Positions 7,519-60,622 of a stretch of 64,000 nucleotides of DNA are shown here, in pieces. Under the pieces are notes generated by a model. It was not told the DNA's origin. It worked only from the letters and a program-made list of their open reading frames with translations, and did not search any database. The stretch spans positions 761 to 64,760 of the forward strand of contig CADBQN010000037.1 in the NCBI GenBank assembly GCA_902796855.1. The letters are read 5' to 3'. The DNA is from an uncultured Bacillota bacterium (GTDB lineage: Bacteria > Bacillota > Dehalobacteriia > UBA7702). Each line of letters opens with the position of its first letter. Position 1 is the first letter of the stretch. The position numbers were made by a program, and so were the translations under genes.

Positions 7519-7549
7519 GTGGAAAATTTCAACTGAGGGCAAATATTTA

Positions 7550-7676
7550 CACTCTCCGAGTCGTTTTTCCTGTCTTGAAGAAAGTGGAAATCCGACCTGG
7601 GCGCGGTTCCCGCCGGGAGTCCGGGCCCACGGGGCGCGAAGGGAAACGTTCGCGCCTGCCATTTCGCAAAGGAGCG
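7550..7676 (+). ncRNA. Moco/Tuco-type riboswitch candidate
   Basis: 5' CTCCGAG and 3' GCCTGCCATTTCGCAAAGGAG (cf. recalled consensus GCCUCCCG..UGGAAAGGAG), GCGCGAAG-GGAAAC-GTTCGCGC hairpin; operon ends in mobA. Confidence 0.75.
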
Positions 7677-7775
7677 GTTTTTTTGACGTGCCGTCTTCGG
7701 CTGAATGATCGTATGTATCGCGTCCTTTTTTGGGGGGAACGCGGTTTTTTTGAGGTTTTGGGGAAGAGGTGGCTT

Positions 7776-21281: not shown

Positions 21282-21446
21282 ATGTTACACTGCAAGAACT
21301 GCGGCAGCGTCATCGTCCCGGGCAGGATCTACCTGTCCAGCGACGGGTTCTACTGTCACCGCTGCGCCGAGGGAGTCCGTTCGTATCTACCGCTCTCCTT
21401 CCCGGGGAAACGGCCGGAAGGGAGGAACGATCATGTCACGATGTGA
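21282..21446 (+). CDS. Small CxxC...CxxC zinc-finger protein
   Basis: AAGGAGG then MLHCKNCG-x-YCHRCAE (54 aa). Confidence 0.6.
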   Translation: MLHCKNCGSVIVPGRIYLSSDGFYCHRCAEGVRSYLPLSFPGKRPEGRNDHVTM

Positions 21447-21621
21447 GCACTGCGGCAGGACCGTCCGAAACAAAGAGGACGTCTACACCTACAAGGGGAA
21501 AGAGCTCTGCGAGGACTGCGCGGTGATGTTCCAGAACCGCGATTTCAGTTCCACCAAGATCATGGGCTGCGACGGCCCCGTCGGCCGGGCCATGCACAAA
21601 GCGGAGCAGTCCCTGAAATAA
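21433..21621 (+). CDS. Small CxxC...CxxC zinc-finger protein
   Basis: GGAGG then MSRCEHCG..ELCEDCA..GCDG (62 aa). Confidence 0.75.
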   Translation: MSRCEHCGRTVRNKEDVYTYKGKELCEDCAVMFQNRDFSSTKIMGCDGPVGRAMHKAEQSLK

Positions 21622-21655: not shown

Positions 21656-21693
21656 AAGAACGCCGCCGGGAGCATTCCTCCGGCGGCGTTCTT
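21656..21693. terminator. Terminator hairpin between convergent genes
   Basis: AAGAACGCCGCCGG...CCGGCGGCGTTCTT, 14-bp stem. Confidence 0.75.
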
Positions 21694-21709: not shown

Positions 21710-22957
21710 TCAGACGAAGCGGCGGTCAAAGACGCGCTTCGATTTCTTTTCGCTCCGGGGCAGTTCGCCGAGGGCGACGGCTTCCGTCTCCACGGTGATG
21801 TTGATCCTCGTTTTAAACAACGTTTTCAGCTTGGCTTCCAGCGATTTGCGGCTTTCACCGGCGGGGAGGGACGTTTCCACCCGCACCTTCATGTGATCCT
21901 TGCCCTCCAGGTGGTCGATGAGGACCTGATACTCACTGGAGGCGTCGTCCAGTTCCTTTAAAATATCCTCGATCTGACCGGGGAAGATGTTGACGCCCTT
22001 GACCTTGACCATGTCGTCGGTGCGGCCGAGGATCGTGTCGATGCGGGGATAGTCGCGGCCGCAGGGACAGGGCTCGTCGGCGGGGATGATCCGGGTGAGG
22101 TCGTGGGTGCGGTAGCGGATCAGCGGCGCGCCTTCCTTTTCCAGGGTAGTGATGACCAGCTCGCCGAGTTCCCCGTCGGGGAGCACCGCGCCGGTCTTCG
22201 GGTCGATGATCTCAAAATAGAGATAATCGTCAAAATAGTGCATGCCGGTCTCATATTCACAGTTCACGGCGATGCCGGGGCCGTAGATTTCCGTCAGGCC
22301 GTAGATATCGTAGAGCTCGATGCCCAGCTCGTCGGCGATGCGGCGGCGCATCTTCTCGCCCCAGCGTTCGGAACCGATGACGCCCTTTTTCAGTTTGATA
22401 TGCTCCCGGATGCCGCGCTTCTCGATTTCCTCCGCCAGCAGCAGAGCGTAGGACGAAGTGGAGCAGAGCACGGTGGAGCCGAGATCCCGCATGAACTGGA
22501 TCTGCTTTTCGGTGTTGCCGGGGCCCATCGGCACCGCCATAGCGCCGAGGAGCTCCGCGCCAAGCTGAAAGCCGATGCCGGCGGTCCACAGACCGTATCC
22601 CGGCGTGATCTGGATGCGGTCTTCCCGGGTGATGCCGGCGATTTCGTAACAGCGCTTGAAGAGGATCGCCCAGTCGTCGACATCCTTTTGGGTATAAGGG
22701 ATGATGACCGGCGTCCCGGTGGTGCCGCTGGAAGAATGGATACGGACGATCTCCGAATCCGTCACGGCGGAGAGCCCTAAGGGATAGGCGTCCCGGAGGT
22801 CGGCCTTTTCCGAAAAGGGCAGTTGCTCAAAATCCTCTTTGCCGCCGATGGCCTCGATGTCGAAGCCCTCCAATTTCTGAGCGTAGAAGCTCCCGGCCGC
22901 TTTGACGCGGCGGAGCTGTTTTTTGATTTTTTCTAACTGTGTCTGGGATAATTCCAT
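21710..22957 (-). CDS. Phenylacetate-CoA ligase family (aryl-acetate CoA ligase)
   Basis: RIHSSSGTTG, YGLWTAGIG, DIYGLTEIYGPG, RYRTHD, GRTDDMVKVKGVNIFP. Confidence 0.93.
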   Translation of the reverse strand: MELSQTQLEKIKKQLRRVKAAGSFYAQKLEGFDIEAIGGKEDFEQLPFSEKADLRDAYPLGLSAVTDSEIVRIHSSSGTTGTPVIIPYTQKDVDDWAILFKRCYEIAGITREDRIQITPGYGLWTAGIGFQLGAELLGAMAVPMGPGNTEKQIQFMRDLGSTVLCSTSSYALLLAEEIEKRGIREHIKLKKGVIGSERWGEKMRRRIADELGIELYDIYGLTEIYGPGIAVNCEYETGMHYFDDYLYFEIIDPKTGAVLPDGELGELVITTLEKEGAPLIRYRTHDLTRIIPADEPCPCGRDYPRIDTILGRTDDMVKVKGVNIFPGQIEDILKELDDASSEYQVLIDHLEGKDHMKVRVETSLPAGESRKSLEAKLKTLFKTRINITVETEAVALGELPRSEKKSKRVFDRRFV

Positions 22958-22963
22958 GATCTC

Positions 22964-23554
22964 TTATCTCTTTTCTGATAGGGTCTTCGCGCCGAGTTCC
23001 AGCGCTTTTTTGTTCATATCGAGAAACCGCGGCCTGATTTTTTTGGCCATGGCGGTTTCGATTTCACTGAGGGTCAGCCCCATTTCACCGCTTTCGGCGA
23101 GGGCGCCGAGGAGCGCCATGTTGACCACGCGGGGGGACCCGCAGACGGCGACAATGGCAGCGGTATCGAGGACGGCGGCTTTTTCCAGGTGCTCCCGCAG
23201 ATAGGCCAGGATCGCCCCGCCGTCATAGGCGGTGCCGCCGAGGGAGGCGGTGACCGGAGCGACGGTCTCGGGACAGGTGATCACCGTGCCGCCTTCCTTT
23301 AAGTAACGAAGATTGCGGAGCACCTCGCCGGGCTCAAAACCGAGGAGCACATCGGCGCCGCCGTTGGGGATCAGCGGCGAGGGCACCGACGCGCCGACGC
23401 GAACGTGGCTGACGACGGAACCGCCCCGCTGGGCCATGCCGATGGTTTCGGCGGTGCGGGCAAACAGCCCCTTTCCCATGGCGGCGGCGGCAATGATCCG
23501 GGAAGCGAGAACGGTGCCCTGACCGCCGACGCCGCAAAGCAGACAACTCTTCAT
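22964..23554 (-). CDS. iorB: Indolepyruvate:ferredoxin oxidoreductase beta subunit
   Basis: GVGGQGTVLAS, ETIGMAQRGGSV, NMALLGA; start MKSCLL. Confidence 0.92.
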   Translation of the reverse strand: MKSCLLCGVGGQGTVLASRIIAAAAMGKGLFARTAETIGMAQRGGSVVSHVRVGASVPSPLIPNGGADVLLGFEPGEVLRNLRYLKEGGTVITCPETVAPVTASLGGTAYDGGAILAYLREHLEKAAVLDTAAIVAVCGSPRVVNMALLGALAESGEMGLTLSEIETAMAKKIRPRFLDMNKKALELGAKTLSEKR

Positions 23555-23555
23555 C

Positions 23556-25322
23556 TCACTGTTCCTCCTTCCCGATGCAGCCCTTGGGACAGACGCTTTG
23601 ACAGAGGCCGCAGCCGACGCAAAGCGCCGGGTCGATGGCGGTCTTTTCCCCATTCTTCCGCAGAGCGGGACAGCCCAGCTGACGGATGCACTTGCCGCAG
23701 CCGACGCAGGTCTCCGCGTCCACCGCAAGGGGGGTTCCGCCTTTTTCCAGCGCGACGCAGGGAGAGCGGAAGATGATGGCGCGGACGCCCTCTTCCGCGG
23801 CGGCGGCCTTCACGGCATCTTCCGCGGCGGCCCGGTCAAAGGGATCCGCCGTCCGCACCGAGGCGACGCCGCAGCCTTTCAGCACCGACGCGATGTCGAT
23901 GACCTGGGTCGGCTCGTTCATCACGGTAATACCGAGACCGGGATGGGGCTGGTGCCCCGTCATCGCCGTGGTGTGGTTGTCGAGAACGACAAGGATCAGA
24001 TCGGCCTTGTTGTAGACGGCGTTGATGACGCCGGTGATCCCCGAGGCAAAGAAGGTGGAATCGCCGACAAAGGCAAAGGTCTGCCCCTCTTCCCCGGCGT
24101 GATACAGCCCCTGTGCCACGGTGATCCCGGCGCCCATGCAGAGGCAGGTATCCACCATATCGAGGGGCGCGGCGTTGCCTAAGGTGTAACAGCCGATGTC
24201 GCCGCAGAAGATCGCCTTTTTCCCCTTCATCGCCTGTTTCACGGCGTAGAAGGAGGCACGGTGGGGGCATCCGGCGCAGAGCACCGGCGGCCGCGGCGGC
24301 AGGAACGGCGCGTCTTCATTGAAGGGCGGCGCCGCCTTGGCGGTACCGAGAATGCTCCCGACGATGTCGGCGCTGAGCTCCCCGGCGGCGGGGACGGTGC
24401 CGTCCCGTTTCCCAAAAAGGGGAACGGCGGGGCGGAGCATGGTCAGGGCGTCCTCAATGACGGGATCGAGCTCCTCAAAGACATAGACTTTCTCAACACC
24501 GGCCAAAAATGACGCGGCCTTTTCCGCCGGGAAGGGATAGGGCGTGGCGACTTTGAAAACAGTGTAATCCTCTTCATGGCCGCGGATGGCGTCCATGACA
24601 TAGGCAAAGCTGACACCGCCGCAGGCGATGCCGATTCTGCCGCCGCCGATGATCTCGTTGCGGCCGTATCCGGAAAACGTTTCGGCATAAGTCTTTTCCG
24701 CGGCGAAGAGCCGCTTTTTGCTCTCGAAGGAAAGCCGGGGGAAGATCACCCAGCGGGGATCCTTCTCAAAGCCGGGAGCACGCTCCGGCGCTTTCGGTTC
24801 CGGCACGTCCACCGAGGCGCAGGAGTGGCACACCCGGGTGGTGGAACGCAGGATCACCGGCACGCCCTCTTTTTCGGAGAAATCAAAAGCTTCCATGGTC
24901 ATAGCGAAGGCCTCTTCCGGCGAGGAACAGTCGAAAACGGGGATCCGCGCGTAGCGGCCGAAATGGCGGGTATCCTGCTCCGTCTGGGAGGAGATCGGCC
25001 CGGGATCGTCGGCGACATAGACCACCATGCCGCCTTTCACGCCGATGTAGTTGACGCACATCAGCGGGTCCGAAGCGACGTTCAGCCCCACCTGTTTCAT
25101 CGTGACGAGGCTCCGCGCCCCGGCGTAGGCGGCGCCGGCGGCCACTTCCAGACCGGCCTTTTCGTTGACCGACCACTCCACGTGAACAAAACCGGGGTTC
25201 CGTTTGGCAATGGTCTCCAGCACCTCGGTGGAGGGCGTTCCCGGATAGCCGGAGACGACCCGCACACCGGCGGCGATGGCGCCCAGCGCCACGGCCTCGT
25301 TCCCCATGAGCAATTCAAGCAT
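23556..25322 (-). CDS. iorA: Indolepyruvate:ferredoxin oxidoreductase alpha subunit
   Basis: LMGNEA, YPGTPSTE, NEKAGLE, PPVLCAGCPH, GDIGCY, GDSTF, TAMTGHQ, C-terminal ferredoxin; true start ATG 25322. Confidence 0.95.
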   Translation of the reverse strand: MLELLMGNEAVALGAIAAGVRVVSGYPGTPSTEVLETIAKRNPGFVHVEWSVNEKAGLEVAAGAAYAGARSLVTMKQVGLNVASDPLMCVNYIGVKGGMVVYVADDPGPISSQTEQDTRHFGRYARIPVFDCSSPEEAFAMTMEAFDFSEKEGVPVILRSTTRVCHSCASVDVPEPKAPERAPGFEKDPRWVIFPRLSFESKKRLFAAEKTYAETFSGYGRNEIIGGGRIGIACGGVSFAYVMDAIRGHEEDYTVFKVATPYPFPAEKAASFLAGVEKVYVFEELDPVIEDALTMLRPAVPLFGKRDGTVPAAGELSADIVGSILGTAKAAPPFNEDAPFLPPRPPVLCAGCPHRASFYAVKQAMKGKKAIFCGDIGCYTLGNAAPLDMVDTCLCMGAGITVAQGLYHAGEEGQTFAFVGDSTFFASGITGVINAVYNKADLILVVLDNHTTAMTGHQPHPGLGITVMNEPTQVIDIASVLKGCGVASVRTADPFDRAAAEDAVKAAAAEEGVRAIIFRSPCVALEKGGTPLAVDAETCVGCGKCIRQLGCPALRKNGEKTAIDPALCVGCGLCQSVCPKGCIGKEEQ

Positions 25323-25339
25323 AACTCTCTCTCCTCCAA

Positions 25340-25605
25340 AATAAAAAAAGCCCCCGCGAACGCAAGGACAAAACAGCATAATTCTGCGGTGCCACCTTGA
25401 TTGACCGCGAAGGCGGCCCCTCTCACCGCGGCGCATAAGCGCCGCCGCCGTTAACGCCGGCATACGTCCGGGGATACTCTCCCAAAGGGATTTGTCCCCG
25501 CCCCTCAGCGGTCCATATTCCACGCGCAGCCTGCCGGGGAGCTTCCACCGTCCTCCCCTCGCTCAGCGGCGCTTACGCGCTTTTCTCCGCTTCAGCGGTT
25601 TAGAT
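25340..25605 (-). ncRNA. T-box riboswitch, Trp (UGG) specifier
   Basis: T-box AATCAAGGTGGCACCGC (25402-25386), terminator with U-tract; stem I closes AGCGG/CCGCT with specifier loop GAATA-TGG-A (TGG at 25515-25513). Confidence 0.85.
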
Positions 25606-25619
25606 TGTGTGTATCATTT

Positions 25620-25648
25620 ATTGTACCATTGAAACGGAGCCGTGTCAA
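25620..25648 (-). promoter_or_regulatory. sigmaA promoter of the T-box/iorAB operon
   Basis: TTGACA-N17-TACAAT. Confidence 0.8.
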
Positions 25649-26185
25649 AGGTTTTTGAGCGAAAAGTCCGCAAAATCCGATTTTTTGGTCAGGGCCGAAA
25701 AAACCGACCGATGACCCCTACTGTCAAAAAGCGCATCAGCGTGGTGTTCCGGAACCTTGTTTATCCGTATATTGACACGGATTTTTGCTGATGACGTTAA
25801 AGAACGACAGGGCAACAGAAAGGTGAGGCAGCCGTTTTTTGCTCCCTTTGCGCTTACCTTTTTATCAAAGAACATTTTTCTTTTCAACATATTTCTTTCC
25901 GGGACGCGTGTTCCCGGGGGTCTTTCACATACCGCCAAAGGAAAGGGCTCCCCTCGGCGGATCAAAACGACCCTTCCGTTTTATTCAATAAGGCGCCGCG
26001 TCCTCTTTCATCCGTTTTCCTCCCGAGAGACTAAAAGGTTCCATATTCGGAAGGGGGACGGGAGGAACCCCGGCGATAAAACGTCAGCAGACCTCCGCGC
26101 GAAAAGAAGCGATTGAAATCGCGTGCCGCCTATGGTAAAATTTTCCCAGAGGAACATTGATCCGAAAAAAGGAGCTGACCACAAC

Positions 26186-42144: not shown

Positions 42145-42345
42145 AAATAAAAAAACTCCCCCGCCGCAAGGGACGGCCAAAGCCGCGGTTCCACCCTTTT
42201 TGACAGAAAAGTCCTCTCATGAGCCGTATAACGGCGGCAGGCCGGCGGTGATGAGACCGCTGCTCCGGGGCGCCTTCTCTCTCCACGCCGCCTCTCACCG
42301 CCGCGGCTCGCTTGTTTCGGAAAGATACTTGTTCCCTTCATCGCG
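42145..42345 (-). ncRNA. T-box riboswitch, Gly (GGC) specifier
   Basis: AAGGGTGGAACCGCG T-box plus terminator; specifier GAA-GGC-G (42274-42272); upstream of glyQ; promoter TTGACA-N17-TACATT at 42396-42368. Confidence 0.9.
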
Positions 42346-42434
42346 TTTCGTTTTCGTGTACCTATATAATGTATCAAATCGCCGCGCCGATGTCAAGTCC
42401 AACCTGTTGTTTTCCCGCGGCGGAACGGCGGCCG

Positions 42435-52496: not shown

Positions 52497-54236
52497 ATGA
52501 AACAACTGATGACAGGCAATGAAGCCATCGCCTTAGGCGCCTGGGAAGCCGGTGTCCGCGTCGTGGCGGCCTATCCCGGCACGCCCTCGACGGAGATCAC
52601 GGAAAACGCCGCCAAATACGACGAGATCTACGCCGAATGGGCCCCCAACGAAAAGGTCGCCATGGAAGTCGCCATCGGCGCCGCCCTCAGCGGCGGCCGC
52701 GCCATGGCCTGCATGAAGCATGTCGGCGTCAACGTCGCCATGGACCCCCTGATGACCGTGGCCTTTTCCGGCGTCAAAGGCGGTCTCGTGCTGATCACCG
52801 CCGACGACCCCGGGATGCACAGCTCCCAGAACGAGCAGGACAACCGCCGTCTCGGCCGCTTCGCCAAGATCCCCGTGCTGGAACCTTCCGATTCCGAGGA
52901 GTGCCGCGATTTCATCAAGGCCGCCTTTGAGATCAGCGAAGCGTTCGATACCCCGGTGATGCTGCGGCTCACCACCCGGGTGGCGCACTCCCAGTCCCTC
53001 CTCGAAAAGGGGCTGCGGGTGGAAAAGGAACTCCCTCCCTACGAACGGGATCCCCAAAAATACGTCATGGTCCCGGCCAACGCCCGGCCCCGCCACGTCA
53101 TCGCCGAGGAGCGGCTTTTAAAGCTGGCGGCGATGAGCGACGAATCGCCGCTGAACCGCGCCGAGATCAACGATAAAAAAATCGGCGTCATCTGCGCCGG
53201 GATCGTCTATCAGTACGTCAGGGAAGCCCTGCCCGAAGCCTCGGTGCTGAAGATCGGCCTCTCCAACCCCCTGCCCAAAAAGATGATCCGCGCCTTCGCC
53301 GCCGAAGTCGAAAAACTCTATGTCATTGAGGAACTCGACGACGTCATGGAAGAACAGATCCGCGGCATGGGCCTGGACGTCACCGGCAAGGACGTCTTTC
53401 CCCTCGTCGGCGAGATCTTCCCCGAGACCATCCGGGAAAAACTCCTTGGCGAAAAAAAGGAAATCGCCTATCGGTACGACGGCGACATCGTCGTCCGGCC
53501 GCCGGTCCTCTGCGCCGGCTGTCCCCACCGCGGCACCTTCCACGTGCTGAAAAAGGCCAAAGTCAATGTTTTGGGCGACATCGGCTGCTACACCCTGGGG
53601 GCCCAGCCGCCGCTGGCCGCCATCGACACCACCATCTGCATGGGCGCCGGCGTCGGCATGGCGCTGGGCATGGAAAAAGTCCGGGGAAAAGATTTCTCCA
53701 AAGAGACCGTCGCCGTCATCGGCGATTCCACCTTTATGCATTCGGGCATCACCGGCCTCGTCGACGTTTTCTACAACAAGGGCTGCACCACGACGATCGT
53801 TCTCGACAACCACATCACCGCCATGACCGGCCATCAGCAAAACCCCCTCACCGGTTTCACCGTCAAGGGCGAGCCCACCAACGCGGTGGATCTGGAAGCG
53901 CTGATCCGCGGCATCGGCATCCGCCGTGTCACCGTCGTGGATCCCTTTGACGTCAAGGGCTTTGCCAAAGTCCTCAAAGAAGAGCTGGCCGCCGAGGAAC
54001 CCTCGGTCATCATCGCCCGCCGCCCCTGCGAACTGCTGCTCAAAGGCGAAAAGGACAGCTACTACATCGAGGCCGAACGCTGCCTCCGCTGCGGCAAGTG
54101 CCTGAAGATCGGCTGCCCCGCCATTGAGAAAACGGCGAGCAAGGTCCCGATCATTCACGGCGATCAATGCGTCGGCTGCGGCCTCTGCCAGAACGTCTGC
54201 GGCAACGACGGCGTCATCCGAAAGGAAGGTGAATGA
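52497..54236 (+). CDS. iorA: Indolepyruvate:ferredoxin oxidoreductase alpha subunit (second copy)
   Basis: LMTGNEA, YPGTPSTE, SSQNEQD, PPVLCAGCPH, GDIGCY, TAMTGHQ. Confidence 0.95.
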   Translation: MKQLMTGNEAIALGAWEAGVRVVAAYPGTPSTEITENAAKYDEIYAEWAPNEKVAMEVAIGAALSGGRAMACMKHVGVNVAMDPLMTVAFSGVKGGLVLITADDPGMHSSQNEQDNRRLGRFAKIPVLEPSDSEECRDFIKAAFEISEAFDTPVMLRLTTRVAHSQSLLEKGLRVEKELPPYERDPQKYVMVPANARPRHVIAEERLLKLAAMSDESPLNRAEINDKKIGVICAGIVYQYVREALPEASVLKIGLSNPLPKKMIRAFAAEVEKLYVIEELDDVMEEQIRGMGLDVTGKDVFPLVGEIFPETIREKLLGEKKEIAYRYDGDIVVRPPVLCAGCPHRGTFHVLKKAKVNVLGDIGCYTLGAQPPLAAIDTTICMGAGVGMALGMEKVRGKDFSKETVAVIGDSTFMHSGITGLVDVFYNKGCTTTIVLDNHITAMTGHQQNPLTGFTVKGEPTNAVDLEALIRGIGIRRVTVVDPFDVKGFAKVLKEELAAEEPSVIIARRPCELLLKGEKDSYYIEAERCLRCGKCLKIGCPAIEKTASKVPIIHGDQCVGCGLCQNVCGNDGVIRKEGE

Positions 54237-54237
54237 G

Positions 54238-54813
54238 ATGAGCGTAAAAAACATCCTCATCGCCGGCGTCGGCGGTCAAGGCACCGTCCTCACGGCAAAA
54301 GTCCTCTCCCGCCTGCTGATCCGGAAGGGGTACGATATCAAGGTTTCCGAAATCCACGGCATGTCCCAGCGCGGCGGCAGCGTCGTCACCCAGGTGCGCT
54401 ACGGCGAAAAGGTCTTCTCCCCGATCATCGCGCCGGCGACCGCCGACGTGATTCTGGCCTTTGAGAAATTAGAGGCCGTCCGCGCCCTGCCCTACCTGAA
54501 AGAGGGCGGCGCCGTCATCGTCAACGAGCGGGAGATCAACCCGATGCCCGTCGTCATGGGCAAGGCCAAATACCCGGCGGATCTCGAGTCGTTCTTAAAC
54601 TGCTGCGGCGCCGAAGCGTACATTTTCGACGCCTACATCCAGGCCGTTGCCGCCGGGAACCCCAAATGCCTCAACATGGTGATGCTCGGCGCCTGGGCGA
54701 AAAAGGCCGGCTTCGACCCGGAAGAATGCCTCGCCGTCATCGAAGAGAACGTGCCGCCGAAATTCCTGGAAGTCAACAAAAAAGGCTTTATGAGAGGGTA
54801 CGATGTCTTCTAA
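54238..54813 (+). CDS. iorB: Indolepyruvate:ferredoxin oxidoreductase beta subunit (second copy)
   Basis: GVGGQGT, SEIHGMSQRGGSV, NMVMLGA. Confidence 0.93.
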   Translation: MSVKNILIAGVGGQGTVLTAKVLSRLLIRKGYDIKVSEIHGMSQRGGSVVTQVRYGEKVFSPIIAPATADVILAFEKLEAVRALPYLKEGGAVIVNEREINPMPVVMGKAKYPADLESFLNCCGAEAYIFDAYIQAVAAGNPKCLNMVMLGAWAKKAGFDPEECLAVIEENVPPKFLEVNKKGFMRGYDVF

Positions 54814-59233: not shown

Positions 59234-60622
59234 TCAAAGAAGGCCTGCTTCTTTTTTGAATTTGGTTACACTGTTGATGGGAACGTCAAGAATATCGGCA
59301 ATGCGGAATTTTGTCTGAATGCCAAGGCCTGCGTCCGGTCTTACCTGAACCGTACCGATGTTAAGTTCTTCCCTGAGTTCTTTCATTTCGGCACAGTCTG
59401 CAAGATAACTTACAGGACAGTTCAATTTATCCGCGACATATTTTTTTGCGTCGTCGATTTTATAACCTTGAAGCTGCATACGGAAAACGAGGTCGCCGGC
59501 AGTTCTTATGCCGCCCATACCCGCGCATGCTTCATGGGTGAGACCCTGACCGAAGGTGTCTCCACCGCCTACCTACAATCCGTCAACACCGGCGATTTCG
59601 ACCAGAGCCTTATCCACACGGGAAACCGCATCGGCAGAAGGAATGAGGGAAAGCGGGATCGCGCCAACGCCCATGCCTACATTGGCATGAACAGGGATCT
59701 TCGCGACTTTTACGGTTTCTTTGGCAAAGGTTACCACACGGGCAAGATTCCATGCGAGGGATTTGGAGCTGTTGGTATTTACCGCCATACCAAAGATGGA
59801 TACCCCGGCTCTTTCTGCCATTTTTACCTGCTGATGGGGATAAAGGCCGGCAATGATCTCATCGTCAAATTTTAATTCGCCGTGCATACCGATGTTGAAT
59901 TCACCTGCCATACCGACTTCAAAACCGGTGGTGGGGTATTTTTCTCGCAGGATGCGAACGGCTTCGAGGGATGCTTTTACATCAGCGTCGCCGGATGCGC
60001 CAACGGTATCGAAGTTGATGCCGTCTGCGCCGGACTCGATCATGCCCGAGGCAACGTAAACGATATCGCTAATAGCGTGTTCGATTGCTTCTTCCTGAGC
60101 TTCCCTTGCTTCTGTGATCTTACCTGCGGGGAGAAGTTCTGCCCAGTTATCACAAGGACCATCGGGTTTGGTATAGAGCCCCATATTGGGCATCGCACCG
60201 TAAAGCAAAGGCAAAGTGGTCAATAATTGAGCCTGTTCCATTGCCTGGCGTTCTTCGGCTGCAATGGCTTTTAAGGGTTTGTAACTGTAGTCCACATGGC
60301 AAAGTTCAAAACTGTCGGAAGCGAGAGCGCGTTCTTGTGTAATGATGGCCTGCAGACGATCCATGGGGATACCGTTGCGGATGCTGAGTTTCAAGGTACC
60401 CGCGTCATAGGAAAGAACAATCTCTTTTCCCGGTTCCACGGATACGATCTTTTGGGGGCTAGCAATGATTTCATAGAGATAATCCATTTCATCCTGAGTC
60501 ATTGCGGGGATCTGAGCGCGTTCTGCCGCGTCCTGAGTACCGGCTTCGATATCGGCACGGATCTCGGCTTCGGTCATTTCTGCTACAAAGTTGTCGCCGT
60601 AGCGAGTGAGAATTTCAGACAT
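59234..60622 (-). CDS. mtbB: Pyrrolysine-containing dimethylamine:corrinoid methyltransferase family protein (462 aa, UAG at codon 350)
   Basis: The 349-aa and 94-aa ORFs are one frame joined across TAG 59575-59573: AGVDGL-(TAG)-VGGGDTFG..GIRTAGDLV; MtbB motifs DYSYKP, YGAMPNMGLY, ADGINFDT, PHQQ, AWNLAR, GMGVG. Confidence 0.93.

Follow-up and report, generated by a model that had tools for sequence, protein, structure and literature searches.

A UGG-specifier T-box leader ahead of an iorAB-ligase operon in an uncultured Bacillota bacterium and its probable role in tryptophan salvage from indoleacetate

Three minus-strand genes in a 64,000-nucleotide stretch of contig CADBQN010000037.1 (assembly GCA_902796855.1, an uncultured Bacillota bacterium; the whole stretch is called the window hereafter) are preceded by a T-box leader with the specifier codon UGG. 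They encode the alpha and beta subunits of an indolepyruvate:ferredoxin oxidoreductase (IOR; iorA and iorB) and a PaaK-like AMP-forming aryl-acetate-CoA ligase. The reading proposed here, to which we assign a probability of about three in four, is that a T-box specific for tRNA-Trp switches on a three-gene tryptophan salvage operon by which indoleacetate would be converted to tryptophan. It draws on sequence elements and their conservation, on covariation within the leader, on protein families and on which genes are present or missing. Each component, from the RNA family to the enzymes and their chemistry, is already known; what appears to be new is the membership of iorAB-ligase in a tryptophan T-box regulon, beside the tryptophan-forming enzyme TrpB2, in tryptophan-auxotrophic gut Clostridia.

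The T-box leader and the tRNA that it reads

The elements between 21710 and 25648, all on the minus strand, constitute one transcription unit, in which the promoter, the T-box and the gene order define the succession promoter, T-box, iorA, iorB, ligase. A strong sigma-70-type promoter (25620-25648; TTGACA-17-TACAAT with an extended TG) agrees with the consensus at 11 of 12 positions, and the promoter search of this region returned 5 sites against 1.3 expected. The leader (25361-25604) extends from Stem I to the antiterminator/terminator and is matched by the RF00230 covariance model over its full length (positions 1-219) with 66.8 bits and an E-value of 4.6e-14. The intrinsic terminator (25343-25369) is made of an 8-pair stem (25369-25350), a GUUC loop and seven U, and the 5' arm of the hairpin shares bases with the 3' arm of the antiterminator, which renders the two helices mutually exclusive. 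Downstream of the terminator, GGAGG precedes the ATG of iorA at 25322; an open reading frame listed from a GTG at 25523 was discarded as mere read-through of the leader, the true start being this ATG. The claim of an earlier note on this DNA, that a UGG-specifier T-box leader lies ahead of iorA, iorB and a PaaK-like ligase, is borne out by the full-length RF00230 match and by the promoter, the terminator and the genes, all of which are in place.

The leaders found upstream of iorA were compared in 14 rows, 13 of them distinct (L031 and L113 are the same in sequence), each with an Rfam T-box match of 59.8-96.7 bits. Compensatory changes occur in 15 of the 28 predicted pairs across these 13 leaders and are distributed over Stem I, the antiterminator and the terminator. 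In the covariance-model alignment, GGAAUA-UGG-A makes up the 3' side of the specifier loop, after which the CCGC helix strand begins; UGG (25513-25515) is invariant and stands exactly one base ahead of the helix in 13/13 distinct leaders, and the specifier helix itself covaries, columns 25-27 and 111-113 being changed on both sides in 2 to 8 of the 13 sequences. TBDB defines one base between specifier and helix as the +0 frame.

The T-box bulge (25391-25394) is UGGC and is predicted to pair with the GCCA 3' end of tRNA-Trp; among the 13 leaders it is UGGC in 4, the window's included, and UGGU in 9. The tRNA-Trp of the genome (anticodon CCA, contig C35) carries G73 and both tRNA-Met genes carry A73. 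C and U both pair with G, and of these only U pairs with A. According to TBDB, U stands opposite G73 in 46% of tryptophan T-boxes. Judged from the alignment, the +0 frame, the C/U bulge that fits G73 and the G73 of tRNA-Trp versus the A73 of tRNA-Met, the specifier is that of tryptophan and not of methionine or tyrosine; the earlier note had made its interpretation depend on a covariance-model check of the specifier, and this placed UGG, rather than UAU or AUG, in the canonical frame.

In the proposed mechanism, when tRNA-Trp is charged the terminator (25369-25343) would form and transcription would halt ahead of iorA. Uncharged tRNA-Trp would pair through its CCA anticodon with the UGG specifier and through its free GCCA 3' end with the UGGC bulge, which would stabilise the antiterminator and allow read-through into the operon.

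The enzymes of the operon

The product of iorA (23556-25322, 588 residues) scores 698.5 bits with TIGR03336, above the cut-off of 650.9, and contains POR_N, TPP_enzyme_C and Fer4 domains. The start of iorB (22964-23554, 196 residues) overlaps the stop of iorA (feature coordinates 23554 and 23556), and its product matches PF01558, a POR gamma-type domain, with 126.8 bits; with the IOR-beta equivalog models it reaches 151-169 bits, below the cut-offs (169 versus 237). The ligase (21710-22957, 415 residues) combines PF00501 (AMP-binding) with PF14535 (AMP-binding_C_2) and is called PaaK-like AMP-forming rather than PaaK proper because its TIGR02155 score, 387.9 bits, falls far below the equivalog cut-off of 646.3; the closest solved structure is 4r1l (347.8 bits). 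An indoleacetate-CoA ligase is known from Aromatoleum. The enzyme of the window is regarded as a putative indoleacetate-CoA ligase, for which the acceptance of indoleacetate by IOR-linked Bacteroides ligases (PMC13285125) offers indirect support.

On this assignment the ligase would first convert indole-3-acetate, ATP and CoA to indoleacetyl-CoA, with ATP going to AMP; IorAB would then combine indoleacetyl-CoA, CO2 and reduced ferredoxin to give indolepyruvate, from which an unlinked aminotransferase would form tryptophan. The tRNA-dependent read-through, the direction of the IOR, the substrate of the ligase and the final aminotransferase are the parts of the scheme that we infer.

Tryptophan genes of the genome

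The genome is a 2.11-Mb draft in 84 contigs, 98.4% complete, with 57% G+C; among its genes are a tRNA-Pyl, a Pyl-type mtbB and genes for sporulation. Near-identical DNA is found in bovine gut, sheep gut and digester metagenomes, the holders coming from 10 studies, and at least half of the sampled words are present in 8 metagenome runs. Family searches of the genome returned no match for trpA, for IGPS (trpC) or for trpB1. A weak trpB match on contig C73 (C73:1-837) corresponds to the C-terminal 278 residues of a TrpB2-type enzyme (NF009057, 398 bits versus 366), the gene being cut by the contig start with loss of its 5' end, and the only trpE-like gene is PabB (TIGR00553, 372 bits versus 328), followed by PabC. 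These results agree with the expectation, raised in the earlier note, that trp genes would be missing. Chorismate synthase is present, which means that the shikimate trunk exists and that the tryptophan branch was not found. Ligase and IOR are thus encoded together in a genome in which the de novo branch was not found, two features expected of an aryl-acid reductive-carboxylation route to tryptophan, and the organism is probably a bovine or sheep gut Clostridium-class bacterium that lacks this branch.

The genome holds further genes of the same families. A second, type-2 iorAB lies on the plus strand of the window (52497-54813), is 42% identical to the iorA of the operon and adjoins the sporulation genes yqfD and yabP; this locus has no T-box leader and no adjacent ligase. 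In some relatives the type-2 iorAB adjoins a ligase about 40% identical to that of the window. Two further PaaK-like ligases in the genome are 39% and 46% identical to the operon ligase. The 39% identical one is found on contig C30 (C30:3660-7208; L001, L019) with an ACT-pair protein; next comes a sodium:solute symporter under the control of a Tyr (UAC) T-box, with tyrosine and aryl acids such as 4-hydroxyphenylacetate as its candidate substrates.

Conservation of the operon and distribution of the leader

The 80 closest public iorA loci, mostly from gut and rumen Clostridia, were examined. iorB and the ligase (60-82% identical) lie directly downstream of iorA in 69 of them, and 3 end too early for the downstream genes to be judged. 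A T-box stands directly upstream of iorA in at least 7 of the 80, always with UGG, a lower bound since divergent leaders may have escaped detection. Leaders were located with an nhmmer profile and Rfam, and as the seven leader-bearing loci among the 80 are the profile's own seeds their count rests on Rfam; this procedure replaced a motif regex, which had missed L034 (a variant motif) and whose matches in L025 and L027 proved to be false positives inside coding sequence.

Within 41 genomes of the window's own class, its own included, the type-1 orthologue locus is present in 13 relatives, 12 of them with upstream sequence. The leader was found upstream of type-1 iorA in 6 of these 12; the other 6 gave no Rfam T-box match at E up to 0.01, and 0 of 16 type-2 iorAB loci matched the leader profile. 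In all, the UGG leader before iorAB-ligase is conserved across 13 distinct genomes. In the iorA tree the leader-bearing rows are scattered among the deeper type-1 branches and at least five state changes are forced, from which it follows that the T-box link was acquired or lost repeatedly. In 4 of the 7 T-box loci examined (L031, L034, L037, L053) the ligase is the last gene of the operon, with opposite-strand genes next.

The leader was also compared with the presence of the tryptophan pathway. Among relatives with the operon, trpB1 above cut-off was found in 0 of 6 genomes with the leader and IGPS likewise in 0 of 6, against 4 of 6 and 3 of 6 respectively in those without it. In a wider set trpB1 is present in 3 of 7 genomes with the leader and in 7 of 11 without, and in the pooled, de-duplicated set, the window's genome included, in 3 of 13 and 11 of 16. 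The leader is biased toward genomes without the trp pathway, with exceptions in both directions; the genomes are mutually related, and completeness is not known for the many metagenome bins among them, so these counts describe a tendency and are not a statistical test. The stricter idea of the T-box as a mark of genomes without the trp pathway was rejected, given that trpB1 occurs in 3 of the 13 T-box genomes and is missing from 5 of the 16 that have no T-box.

A shared regulon with TrpB2

All four relatives checked (G019, G022, G031, G033; loci L134-L137) have a separate T-box in front of the TrpB2-like gene, with the specifier GAA-UGG-A and a UGGC or UGGU bulge, which means that in those relatives iorAB-ligase shares a tryptophan-starvation regulon with a tryptophan-forming enzyme. 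Seven T-boxes were counted in the window's genome versus nine in each of two relatives of the same genus, a difference probably explained by the loss of the TrpB2 5' end at the contig edge. The arrangement suggests that TrpB2 may serve indole salvage under the same starvation signal; the operon and a T-box-controlled TrpB2, using indole and serine, would then rebuild tryptophan from breakdown products released by neighbours.

Two other Clostridia genomes carry a further UGG T-box directly after iorAB(-ligase). At L056:5505-7490 it controls a TrpP-type ECF component with ATPases, and at L054:6752-7794 a PF04392 ABC binding protein. Searching the window's genome with the L056 protein revealed no TrpP transporter, and the L054 binding protein gave only a weak match there (28% identity).

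Direction of the pathway and alternative explanations

That the operon runs in the anabolic direction, from indoleacetate through indoleacetyl-CoA and indolepyruvate to tryptophan, is well supported by what we infer from its regulation and gene content: the T-box signals starvation, TrpB2 in the same regulon forms tryptophan, no tryptophan source besides uptake is found, and an AMP-forming ligase favours formation of the thioester. A catabolic operon, in which tryptophan would yield indolepyruvate, IOR would convert this to indoleacetyl-CoA and the ligase, reversed or recycling CoA, would release indoleacetate, is highly improbable. IOR has this role, its classical one, in archaea that ferment peptides (PMC5817080). 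Since a T-box induces when its cognate tRNA is uncharged, tryptophan breakdown under its control would take place during tryptophan starvation, which is self-defeating; the co-regulation with TrpB2 and the lack of a de novo tryptophan supply to spare speak in the same sense. In addition, the known oxidative routes use an ADP-forming synthetase or a phosphotransacylase and kinase and not an AMP-forming ligase (PMC13285125, PMC5817080). It is barely credible that the leader is a decayed T-box without function, or a mis-assigned one reading tRNA-Met through an AUG that overlaps UGG. A is the base before UGG in 13/13 leaders, so that A-U-G-G is invariant and an AUG frame exists, the whole-leader minimum-free-energy fold is not distinctive (z -1.94), and the score lies under the Rfam gathering threshold. 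AUG would, however, leave two bases ahead of the helix, off the +0 frame, the UGGC of four leaders is unable to pair with A73 of tRNA-Met, more than half of the predicted pairs show compensatory changes, and promoter, terminator and antiterminator are all intact. As to the score, a default Rfam scan of the window lists no T-box because the leader falls below that threshold, the match having come in E-value mode; the gathering score is a curation threshold and not a structural feature, and with 4 of the 7 T-box matches in the genome beneath it, among them those before glyQS (85.4 bits) and serS (61.6 bits), it is conservative for this genome.

A broader function is also unlikely, namely that the operon assimilates aryl acids in general (phenylacetate, 4-hydroxyphenylacetate and indoleacetate to phenylalanine, tyrosine and tryptophan), with a ligase that is not specific for indoleacetate, and is wired to tryptophan as the sole aromatic amino acid that the cell cannot make. 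All three arylpyruvates are substrates of IORs, and 4-hydroxyphenylacetate, phenylacetate and indoleacetate were each accepted by the ligases of Bacteroides and C. difficile (PMC13285125); of the 80 closest loci, 62 (69 minus 7) have the same three-gene cluster but no T-box, many of them in genomes with trpB1. On the other side, the second iorAB and the two additional PaaK-like ligases could serve phenylalanine and tyrosine, the genome retains chorismate synthase, and all 13 leaders are specific for tryptophan, none for phenylalanine or tyrosine.

Several observations weigh against tryptophan salvage from indoleacetate, even so. The leader's 66.8 bits compare with an RF00230 gathering score of 93, the ligase does not reach the PaaK equivalog cut-off, and the operon contains no aminotransferase within the window. 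Most iorAB-ligase operons have no T-box, which was found in at least 7 of the 80 loci and 6 of the 12 assessable relatives, and in the nearest relative (G023/L041, iorA 78% identical) only a plain promoter precedes the operon, though trpB1 and IGPS are missing there too. The trpB1 gene of 3 of the 13 T-box genomes implies that the operon is no strict replacement of the pathway. An orphan TrpD-like gene (contig C16:38099-39106, L017), which scores 245 bits with TIGR01245, above the cut-off, and adjoins a Zn-dependent dehydrogenase, is present in a genome without trpC, trpA and trpB1, and the assembly is a draft of 84 contigs. Same-strand open reading frames follow the ligase in 3 of the 7 T-box loci (L035, L045, L052), and the IOR of B. 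thetaiotaomicron was reported to convert phenylalanine to phenylacetate (cited in PMC13285125), so this type of cluster can run oxidatively. Contigs from 3 RNA libraries of 2 studies are identical to parts of iorA (23956-24206, 24430-24580 and 24720-24870), and contigs from the same libraries to parts of the ligase gene (22297-22447 and 22585-22735); they are no proof of transcription and show no levels, ends, strand or regulation, and none covers the leader region (25299-25700).

Relation to known systems

Tryptophan T-box leaders of Firmicutes, which precede trp operons, trpS, rtpA and TrpX/TrpP genes, resemble that of the window in the UGG specifier, the UGG(C/U) bulge and the terminator/antiterminator switch; they control genes for tryptophan biosynthesis, a synthetase or a transporter, whereas the present leader controls a 2-oxoacid:ferredoxin oxidoreductase and a CoA ligase. 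In S. suis a tryptophan T-box reportedly stands ahead of the transporter gene trpX. In Dehalococcoides, Wels et al. (2008) noted a trpB-like gene preceded by a T-box; the available part of that paper mentions no oxidoreductases or ligases among the targets. No report linking a T-box to iorAB-ligase, and none joining T-box and indolepyruvate, was found in the literature searched; the T-box regulon survey of Vitreschak et al. (2008) was outside its coverage and could list ior genes. For a T-box together with iorA, iorB or paaK only a Geobacter genome paper surfaced (PMC2700814), which lists "tryptophan (iorAB-paaK)" among biosynthetic operons with a conserved 5' sequence. Geobacter thus shares with the window the three genes and a conserved upstream element filed under tryptophan; its element, however, is about 90-100 nt long and is not called a T-box, the sole T-box reported there lies before leuA, and a full trp operon is present (PMC2700814).

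The archaeal pairs of IOR and ADP-forming acyl-CoA synthetase and the HpdDEFG-HpdJ-HpdK system of C. scatologenes belong to the same superfamily and share aryl-acetyl-CoA intermediates with the operon of the window, but these oxidative routes are catabolic and yield ATP by way of an ADP-forming synthetase or a phosphotransacylase and kinase, whereas the window combines an AMP-forming ligase with a starvation signal. Methanococcus maripaludis is an archaeon in which aryl acids serve for all three aromatic amino acids alongside the de novo route, unlike the bacterial, tryptophan-wired operon of a genome without the tryptophan branch, and we know of no tRNA-sensing switch in the archaeal route. 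This use is IOR-dependent (Porat et al., cited in PMC4162585), and the proposed chemistry is the same, aryl-acetate going to aryl-acetyl-CoA and by reductive IOR to arylpyruvate, followed by transamination. In Bacteroides, where iorAB and an AMP-forming ligase form the same neighbourhood and whose ligase structure 4r1l gives the window's enzyme its best match in the PDB, Jiang et al. (2026; PMC13285125) have characterised the IOR-linked AMP-forming ligase as an arylacetate-CoA ligase that accepts 4-hydroxyphenylacetate (HPA), phenylacetate (PA) and indoleacetate (IA), and have suggested an anabolic role. The available part of that paper gives no regulatory evidence for the cluster and leaves the direction open; the T-box of the window supplies a regulatory argument.

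Other features of the window

The ligase stop and a small convergent open reading frame are separated by a 14-bp perfect inverted repeat (21656-21693, without assigned strand), which, as judged from its sequence, is probably a terminator shared by both. The small frame (21433-21621, plus strand) has 62 codons and two CxxC pairs and gave no Pfam match. At the other end of the transcription unit, a divergent promoter upstream of the leader drives toward a DUF3786 gene.

Elsewhere in the window, a Gly (GGC) T-box of 85.4 bits (42166-42350, minus strand) precedes glyQ (42180-41185) and glyS (41183-39108), and a molybdenum/tungsten cofactor riboswitch (RF01055, 65.4 bits) lies at 7542-7690 on the plus strand. 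The dimethylamine methyltransferase gene mtbB (PF09505; 58550-60622, minus strand) breaks off at an in-frame TAG beside a PYLIS_2 match (59476-59575) and is followed by a corrinoid protein gene; with a tRNA-Pyl on contig C5, this TAG is probably read as pyrrolysine.

Implications for tryptophan metabolism in gut Clostridia

The conversion of indoleacetate to tryptophan was described in rumen bacteria decades ago. Should the wider proposal given below be correct, the T-box would provide the earliest regulatory evidence for which genes carry out that conversion, and tryptophan waste products, which are host-active and plant-active signals, would be turned back into tryptophan, from indoleacetate by ferredoxin-driven CO2 fixation and from indole by TrpB2. 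The operon also singles out specific genes for the route from indoleacetate to tryptophan in anaerobes. Work on Bacteroides in 2026 (PMC13285125) again posed the question of whether a bacterial IOR encoded beside an AMP-forming ligase makes or breaks aromatic amino acids. As a T-box reports only starvation for its cognate amino acid, the leader constitutes an independent regulatory argument for the anabolic direction, and the question of the direction of IOR becomes directly testable. A wider proposal, toward which we lean slightly, is that gut and rumen Clostridia without de novo tryptophan synthesis run a two-armed tRNA-Trp regulon, TrpB2 being one arm and ligase-IOR the other, and would act as dedicated sinks for the tryptophan waste of their neighbours. 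Taken with the T-box of TrpB2, the operon predicts that tryptophan-auxotrophic gut Clostridia would consume both indole and indoleacetate, which bears on the pools of metabolites involved in host signalling.

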